From a virus (Duplodnaviria; Heunggongvirae; Uroviricota; Caudoviricetes), in the IMG/VR virus record IMGVR_UViG_2548876700_000007: DNA of 5,281 nucleotides. One strand, written 5' to 3'. Of this stretch, positions 24-893 are shown in pieces. Position 1 is the stretch's first letter; each line of letters opens with the position of its first letter. The position numbers were made by a program, and so were the translations under genes. Below the pieces are notes generated by a model that worked only from the letters and a program-made list of their open reading frames with translations, was not told the origin of the DNA and ran no database searches.

Positions 24-893
24 TCATTGGCGCACCTCCTGCGGCGGTTCTGGTAGAGGCATCCAGTGTGATGGTATCCACGACGCACCAGGTATTATCC
101 ACCCATCATTAGCGTCAGGATGCCCCGGGATGTAAGTCGCCCATTTCATTCGCCAGTCACCTTTCCTGCCAAAATCCCTGGCAACAAGAACGGCTGTTTT
201 GGTATCCGGCATTCGCTCACTACAGCTTATCCAACTATCCGGAGTTACCGGATAGTTGCCCGATAGTGCATTCTGCTCCAGTGATGCTTTTACAAACCAC
301 GCTGCCTGAACTATAACGCCATGAATCCAGCGCAAATCAGCATCGCGATCTTTCTTTTTCATCTTTTCGCCACTTAAGGCCTTGCTTATGTGGCTGCGTA
401 CCAGGTCTTCATGTAATTCCTTCGCCTCCTCAATGGTGAAACCACCAGGCAGAAGAGCCGGAGTTACCGGAGAGCTGGTTGACGCTTCCGGGATTTTCCG
501 AAAATTATTGGTTGACGAATCTTTATTTTCCCGAAAGTTTCCGGACTGAAGCATGGCTTCGCGGCAATCGTTCCAGCCTGTAGCGTATGCAGTCGCTTTG
601 CTGCTGCCTTCAACTGGCGCATCCTGCCAATACATTTCTTCCGGCACTATCGGCGCTGGAGGGGCGGCAAATAGATATCCGCCAAAGTCAGGAAGCTCTC
701 TAATGGCCTGTACGAATTTTTGTTTGCCTACGTCAACCCCTAATGGGTAATGAGCTATAATCTTTGCCACCGGCTCTGCTTCCAGCGATGCCAGCGCAAT
801 CCGTGCCAGTTCCATTTGTTCACCACGGGTAAGCCCGTTTTCAAGCGGATTTTTAATGAACAATTCAATACGTTCTTTGGTAATAGTGGTCAT
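24..893 (-). CDS. DUF551-domain phage protein (289 aa), N-terminal domain of unknown function
   Basis: Seen: long ORF with ATG at 893..891 preceded by AAGGAG about 6 nt upstream (rc of 901-906); the upstream gene's TAA stop (906..904) overlaps this SD. C-terminus ...DSWISCSERMPD...WIPSHWMPLPEPP matches the DUF551 C-terminal signature as I recall it (established knowledge). N-terminal ~170 aa not recognised. Confidence 0.8.
   Translation of the reverse strand: MTTITKERIELFIKNPLENGLTRGEQMELARIALASLEAEPVAKIIAHYPLGVDVGKQKFVQAIRELPDFGGYLFAAPPAPIVPEEMYWQDAPVEGSSKATAYATGWNDCREAMLQSGNFRENKDSSTNNFRKIPEASTSSPVTPALLPGGFTIEEAKELHEDLVRSHISKALSGEKMKKKDRDADLRWIHGVIVQAAWFVKASLEQNALSGNYPVTPDSWISCSERMPDTKTAVLVARDFGRKGDWRMKWATYIPGHPDANDGWIIPGASWIPSHWMPLPEPPQEVRQ

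Follow-up and report, generated by a model that had tools for sequence, protein, structure and literature searches.

An imperfect in-frame 11-codon tandem repeat in the linker of a lambdoid-prophage DUF551 protein, at an apparent intragenic mosaic joint

The 5,281-nt stretch of viral DNA analyzed here, referred to as the window, encodes on its minus strand a DUF551 protein whose Ser/Thr/Asn/Pro-rich linker contains two imperfect copies of an 11-codon unit. The repeat is very probably an old in-frame tandem duplication in a disordered tether that leads from an EaA-like N-terminal module to the modules downstream. It is an ordinary linker duplication within what appears to be an intragenic mosaic joint, and represents ordinary phage mosaicism. 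The original prediction, made from the nucleotide sequence, is supported as essentially right in its interpretation, with an architecture that is more complex than was assumed.

Bases 1–5228 of the window are identical to a Rac/Qin-like lambdoid prophage of Escherichia coli O55:H7 (e.g. strain CB9615), save for one deletion of 736 nt. The window contains a LexA-family repressor gene on the plus strand, and cro, a YdaT-family gene, a replication-region ORF, and several small genes on the minus strand. The gene that carries the repeat, 24..893(-), is listed as a complete ORF of 289 residues and is named "DUF551 domain-containing protein" by NCBI. The protein is 100% identical to P0003, which is present on 288 contigs, and the DNA of 24..893 is identical in E. 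coli O55:H7 CB9615. It is a lambdoid-prophage accessory protein that is very common in prophages of E. coli, Shigella, and Salmonella.

The 736-nt deletion is situated at about 2197–2199, as seen in comparison with CB9615 and with the six further complete genomes in which 99% of the window is matched. As a result, the ORF 2059..2754(-) is a fusion of parts of two genes, one of the DUF977 family and a hypothetical gene upstream, and only a few bases of microhomology are present at the junction. The exact deleted arrangement was not found among the complete E. coli genomes of the collection. The replication-region ORF contains tandem repeats at 2259–2290 (12 nt, 2.7 copies) and 2372–2425 (23 nt, 2.3 copies), which may be iteron-like origin repeats.

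The repeat in the DUF551 gene had been placed at 476–541. Both strings are present, TGGTTGACGCTTCCGGGATTTTCCGAAAATTAT at 476–508 and TGGTTGACGAATCTTTATTTTCCCGAAAGTTTCC at 509–542, and the predicted end is one base short. A direct-repeat search revealed a single family, 476–506 and 509–539, with a length of 31 nt, an identity of 71% (22/31), and a start-to-start spacing of 33 nt; across the full units the identity is 22/33. On the minus strand, unit 1 (A) covers 507..539 (codons 119–129, NFRENKDSSTN), and unit 2 (B) covers 474..506 (codons 130–140, NFRKIPEASTS). The offset of 33 nt equals 11 codons and is in frame with the gene, so that the repeated linker described earlier as NFRENKD / NNFRKIP-like is confirmed as two in-frame units at residues 119–140.

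To judge the similarity of the units, the whole window of 5281 nt was simulated 300 times with a first-order Markov model, and each simulated sequence was searched, at offsets between 12 and 60, for 31-mers that match at 22 or more positions. Such a match occurred in 2% of the simulated windows, a test that is only moderately strong when taken alone. Tandem Repeats Finder, run with a minimum score of 30, did not report the 33-nt repeat because the units are too diverged. Consensus units derived from 34 distinct homologous two-unit haplotypes are identical at 25/33 positions, compared with 22/33 for the units of the window itself, and the identity between units ranges from 67 to 76%. The arrangement is a tandem duplication, with adjacent copies, a period that is a multiple of three, and a similarity beyond chance. 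The 33-nt repeat is real, weak, and in frame. Two other candidate features at this site were rejected. For a programmed -1 frameshift, the heptamer GGGAAAA in unit 1 has the wrong register relative to the zero frame (..TTT CGG GAA AAT..), and the overlapping ORFs 464..622 (minus strand, 52 residues) and 382..549 (plus strand) are without support.

An AlphaFold2 model of the protein was calculated from a 150-sequence alignment (mean pLDDT 71, pTM 0.33). Together with the sequence comparisons, it fixes the domain boundaries as an N-terminal module (residues 1–118), a linker (residues 119–145), a helical hairpin (residues 146–210), a second joint (residues 211–218), and DUF551 (residues 220–285). 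The N-terminal module, encoded at 540..893(-), is predicted to contain helices at residues 6–14, 23–38, and 98–119, with a low-confidence insert at residues 45–80, and it ends in GWNxCRxAMLQSG. The middle module (264..458(-); ALLPGGFTIEEAKELHEDL...) is predicted to form a hairpin of two helices, residues 154–173 and 180–210. The second joint (239..258(-), ..GNYPVTPDS..) reads SGNYPVTP, is directly upstream of DUF551, and shows a short low-confidence stretch at residues 212–215. DUF551 (39..236(-)) is beta-rich, with pLDDT values of 79–94 as means of 10-residue blocks. It matches Pfam PF04448 with 69.1 bits (cut-off 22) and an E-value of 6e-19 over profile positions 1–68 of 68, and Foldseek matches in BFVD are DUF551 proteins without exception.

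In the model, pLDDT is below 50 at residues 119–139 and 141–143, a near-exact match to the two units. The low-confidence segment 119–139 is situated between helix 98–119 and helices 154–210, so that structure prediction does delimit the domains. The lowest hydropathy in the protein, -2.06, is found for the window of residues 121–135, of which 87% are polar, charged, or Pro/Gly. The linker segment is thus predicted to be unstructured and to lie between folded domains, a call based on one AlphaFold2 model and on composition. Across the two units pN/pS is 0.78 in the 34 haplotypes, and the variable sites are spread evenly over the codon positions (11, 14, and 14). A pN/pS of about 0.8 suggests that the units are a weakly constrained spacer. 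The claim that the segment is a linker agrees with all three observations: it is the most hydrophilic stretch, it is modeled at low confidence, and it evolves under weak constraint.

The claim that the repeat marks a domain boundary holds as well. The linker follows immediately on the final helix of the N-terminal module, and in some relatives the protein stops shortly past AMLQ. The end of the module at about residue 117 is indicated independently by these proteins, which stop after AMLQG.., and by phrog_5117, which matches residues 1–117. The linker had also been described as connecting the N-terminal region to DUF551. It does lie between them, but the 65-residue hairpin and SGNYPVTP intervene. 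The hairpin is found in some relatives and is missing in others, and residues 144–208 are matched alone in Klebsiella and Serratia phages when phage genomes are searched with tblastn.

Copy number was compared among distant relatives, because the top matches of the protein search are all 98–100% identical and are uninformative on linker variation. All of the closest 120 database clusters, at 98–100% identity, keep two units, and the few variants of 288 or 290 residues among the near-identical clusters differ outside the linker. Diversity was obtained from a tblastn search of residues 1–219 against phage genomes and from an exhaustive HMMER search against 50%-identity cluster representatives. 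The latter gave 969 matches to residues 1–219 at E-values up to 0.001, in clusters that match the N-terminal module, the linker, or the hairpin.

The state of the linker was read from the 50%-identity representatives as the sequence that follows GWNxCRxAMLQ. Two units, in the form [SA]GNFRE......NNFR......ST.SPVTP, are present in 36–37 clusters. A single unit is present in 3–4 clusters, among them P0134 with B only (GNFREISETSTNSP..) and P0154 and P0189 with A only (GNFRENTNSSTNSP.. and GNFRGNKNSSTNYP..). No unit is present in the 7 clusters that read AGN[SY]PVTP. The linker is SQGEGNPHVTP in 10 clusters and of another kind in 28, and in 4 clusters the protein stops at most 5 residues after MLQ. 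None of the clusters has three units. IMG/VR was also scanned with a pattern of 16 nt from unit 1; the loci so selected, which are redundant, comprise 103 two-unit contexts, 5 one-unit contexts of both kinds, and no three-unit context. An allele with three or more units was not found in about 250 sequences examined.

The unit also appears as a discrete event in a pair of closely related genes. Phage mEp460_4F5 and the Stx1a phage Stx1_9793, whose genes have the N-terminal module and DUF551 in common, are 94.3% identical over 246 aligned bases with one gap of 33 nt. The gap removes exactly one unit, which is missing in mEp460_4F5 and present in Stx1_9793. As read from these alignments, homologues differ by whole units (0, 1, or 2). 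Linker length had been predicted to vary among homologues; it does so, one unit at a time, and the repeat persists in the alignments. The related claim of linker expansion is likewise upheld by the relatives with 0, 1, and 2 units and by the clean 33-nt indel. The A-only and B-only alleles are each near-identical to the matching unit of the two-unit alleles, and hence one kind, if not both, must have arisen through secondary deletion between copies. Two single-contig variants, P0001 (389 residues) and P0002 (395 residues), contain internal duplications of about 100 residues. P0001 duplicates ELPDFGG...HEDLA, and P0002 duplicates the stretch from linker unit 2 to WISCS. These are either the result of unequal recombination between joints or assembly artefacts.

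The second joint is related to the linker on the DNA level. A direct repeat of 20 nt with 90% identity, 239–258 and 458–477, brackets the helical hairpin at a distance of 219 nt, or 73 codons, and encodes [S/N][S/Y]PVTP on both sides. Recombination between the two copies would cut out the hairpin in frame and give the ...STSSPVTPDSWISC.. architecture of many relatives; those without a hairpin read ...STSSPVTPD[GS]WISCSERMP. The zero-unit linker AGN[SY]PVTP is the same sequence as the second joint (SGNYPVTP), and therefore the NFR units look like an expansion between GN and [SY]PVTP. Inside the second joint, at 243–267, Tandem Repeats Finder reports a repeat with a period of 11 nt (AGTTACCCGAT, 2.3 copies, score 36), which is probably not meaningful because 11 is not divisible by three.

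The N-terminal domain had been considered unrecognized. This stands in that the region has no match in Pfam, NCBIfam, or PDB, but the region is EaA-like, has PHROG matches, and belongs to the part of the protein (residues 1–219) that matches the 969 clusters. Residues 1–91 are 53.6% identical to the P22 eaA locus (tblastn, E 1e-15), and residues 1–44 are 89% identical to HK620 hkaE. P22 EaA and EaA-like proteins have the N-terminal module in common with the protein studied here, including MTTITKER.., ELARIALASLEAEP, AAPPAPVVPE, and GWNACRAAMLQ. A Salmonella EaA protein can be aligned with it over the full length and likewise has DUF551 at its end; its linker reads AMLQ-GKFRD-LSQPVDP.., without the NFR duplication. 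The C terminus of P22 EaA is DUF550 (dATP/dGTP pyrophosphohydrolase) according to the annotation of a related record. The protein of the window has DUF551 as its only Pfam domain, and so lacks the DUF550 domain of P22 EaA; PF04447 is found in 3 of 150 relatives. The P22 EaA-like genes, as here, are small accessory genes of temperate enterobacterial phages, in the lambdoid ea / exo-xis / nin regions. Literature searches on EaA and on lambdoid intragenic mosaicism returned nothing specific to this linker. The EaA-like module is thus a widespread unit without a Pfam model, and several different C-terminal domains are found joined to it.

The linker is part of a conserved nucleotide island of about 120 nt at 458..579(-) (gene nt 315–436), which consists of GWNDCREAMLQSG, the two NFR units, and SPVTP. 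In a blastn comparison with 7 relatives, similarity is confined to gene nt 1–23, 82–128, 226–260, 315–436, 634–689, and 826–870, and between these islands the sequences of the relatives cannot be aligned. The island is 87–100% identical at the nucleotide level in genes with unalignable flanks, namely those of Lyz12581Vzw, POCJ13, P7 (upf89.5), and Stx1_9793. HSPs that cross the linker of the window gene were obtained for 103 IMG/VR loci; 73 of them start at gene nt 304–337, at GWNxCRxAMLQ, and 82 end at gene nt 429–438, immediately past SPVTP. Downstream of the linker there are at least five different sequences: SEVLSA.., DGWISC (DUF551), ALLPGG.. (hairpin), DGWVMV.., and DGLSTV... The Pfam domains found in 150 relatives are DUF551 (56), dATP/dGTP pyrophosphohydrolase (3), Ead_Ea22 (2), and Lar (1).

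Conserved DNA between non-homologous flanks in multiple genomes indicates that the island is an intragenic, in-frame mosaic joint. The protein as a whole is a patchwork, in which modules are joined via short conserved islands. The mosaic structure accounts for the splitting of the intact ORF by homology-based annotation in one RefSeq genome. In CB9615 (NC_013941.1; 1524–2393 of the compared stretch), the identical 289-residue ORF is represented by two features, a DUF551 CDS of 112 residues (window 24–362) and a pseudogene fragment "missing C-terminus" (window 477–893), the end of which coincides with the start of the repeat. This two-feature annotation looks like an artefact of the mosaic structure. 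A further observation concerns the P1-like phage P7 (AF503408.1, 354–1652), in which upf89.5 encodes 433 residues with the same N-terminal module and a two-unit linker, 89% identical over 119 nt. The motif C[RH]AAMLQG occurs a second time downstream of these. Here a phage of the P1 group carries a joint of the lambdoid type.

Several other explanations of the repeat can be set against a linker duplication. The units could be copies of a short linear motif, N-F-R-x(4-5)-S-T-[NS], that is bound by a host or phage partner, with two copies selected for avidity. Conservation in both units is highest at NFR and S-T in the 50%-identity representatives, with NCR and SFR as rare exceptions, and the two-unit state is far more common than the one-unit state and is kept throughout about 120 near-identical clusters. 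This dominance may, however, just reflect common descent and recombinational spread. A selected motif is unlikely in view of the pN/pS of about 0.8 across the units, and many relatives with the same N- and C-terminal modules have no unit or have another linker (SQGEGNPHVTP, GSQPVSQ..); nor was a match to any known motif or family found. It is also doubtful that GWNxCRxAMLQSG-(NFR)n-SPVTP is a selected, portable in-frame "domain-swapping adaptor," in which the NFR duplication lengthens the homology and raises exchange. If this were true, lambdoid and even P1-like phages would join an EaA-like N-terminal module to interchangeable effector domains by a conserved cassette, the effectors being DUF551, dATP/dGTP pyrophosphohydrolase, Lar, and several unnamed modules.

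Chance resemblance of two low-complexity coding stretches, with no duplication event, is very improbable. An identity of only 22/33, the lack of a call by Tandem Repeats Finder, and the compositional bias of A/T-rich N/F/K/S codons would all agree with it, but it is excluded by the clean indel of one 33-nt unit between 94%-identical genes. The similarity score reached in only 2% of simulated windows, the offset of exactly 11 codons, the closer agreement of the homologue consensus units (25/33), and the existence of both A-only and B-only alleles also argue against it. There is equally little to be said for a plus-strand DNA element, whether as an antisense promoter or as a pair of protein-binding sites separated by three helical turns. 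TTGACG does stand at the start of each unit, and each contains a TTTTCC(C)GAAA near-palindrome. A promoter scan finds a sigma-70-like TTGACG-18-AATTAT at 479–508 on the plus strand, antisense in unit 2, with 9/12 matches, and an inverted repeat, ATTTTC-C-GAAAAT, can be read at 494–506. Yet two promoter-like sites in 700 nt compare with 0.8 ± 1.0 expected, which is no enrichment, and the second unit lacks a -10 element. Variable sites are spread evenly over codon positions, synonymous sites are not specially conserved, an Rfam search of the whole window returned no family, and there is no plausible plus-strand gene downstream. The least credible reading is a hypermutable contingency repeat whose copy number switches often to modulate the protein. 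Lineages do differ in having 0, 1, or 2 units, but slippage is suppressed by the divergence of the units (about 30%), and all of about 120 clusters at 98–100% identity keep two units (289 residues). Alleles with at least three units are absent from the sequences examined, and the changes are in frame and so would not allow on/off switching.

For the preferred reading, an old linker duplication, the direction of change (duplication or deletion) was inferred from the distribution of linker states. The basal joint would have been GN-[SY]PVTP. It would have gained one unit, which was then presumably duplicated via replication slippage or unequal crossing-over, and the rare A-only and B-only forms would mostly be secondary deletions between the two copies. 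On the protein level, the segment would serve as a passive flexible spacer whose exact sequence is of little weight. On the DNA level, the island may supply short homology for in-frame exchange of modules by phage Rad52-type recombinases, which would explain its wide spread. We infer such recombination inside the island; the clustering of breakpoints there could equally reflect selection for in-frame, domain-respecting junctions after illegitimate recombination. When the window is compared with Lyz12581Vzw, where the flanks are homologous, the linker is conserved no better than the adjacent module, and therefore there is no sign of selection on the DNA itself. The linker is a clean case of mosaicism inside a gene, at a joint that is conserved and in frame; its practical value is modest, and no new mechanism is revealed.

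The arrangement resembles the mosaic joints of lambdoid phages. Mosaicism in temperate phages has been attributed mostly to homology-driven, divergence-tolerant recombination by Rad52-like phage recombinases, and about 30% of mosaic borders showed traces of flanking homology (PMC3945230). The island fits such traces in being a short conserved stretch of DNA between unrelated flanks, likewise in phages that encode Rad52-type recombinases. In contrast, the joint here falls within a coding sequence, where two domains meet, with the frame kept, so that domains and not whole genes would be shuffled. The island of P7 is 89% identical at the nucleotide level, whereas recent exchanges (>90%) were reported only within the lambda-like or the P1-P2-Mu group and not between them (PMC3945230).

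DUF551 has been described as a portable domain in mosaic Ea22 variants (PMC10834534), and YfdS has been linked to oxidative-stress tolerance (PMC4776307). YfdS of E. coli CPS-53 and variant 2 of Ea22 from Stx phages have DUF551 in common with the C-terminal domain of the protein studied here, but their N-terminal parts differ (an Ead/Ea22 coiled coil, or none). The Ead/Ea22 family (PF13935) has no match in the protein of the window at E-values up to 1, and the AMLQ-NFR-PVTP linker is not described in either report.

Expansion of interdomain linkers via tandem duplication is a general phenomenon of multidomain proteins. The repeat follows it in being a short in-frame duplication whose segment is of low complexity, disordered, and weakly constrained and varies in length among homologues. 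It differs in that only two diverged copies are present, with no ongoing expansion, and in that the linker itself appears to be horizontally mobile among domain combinations.
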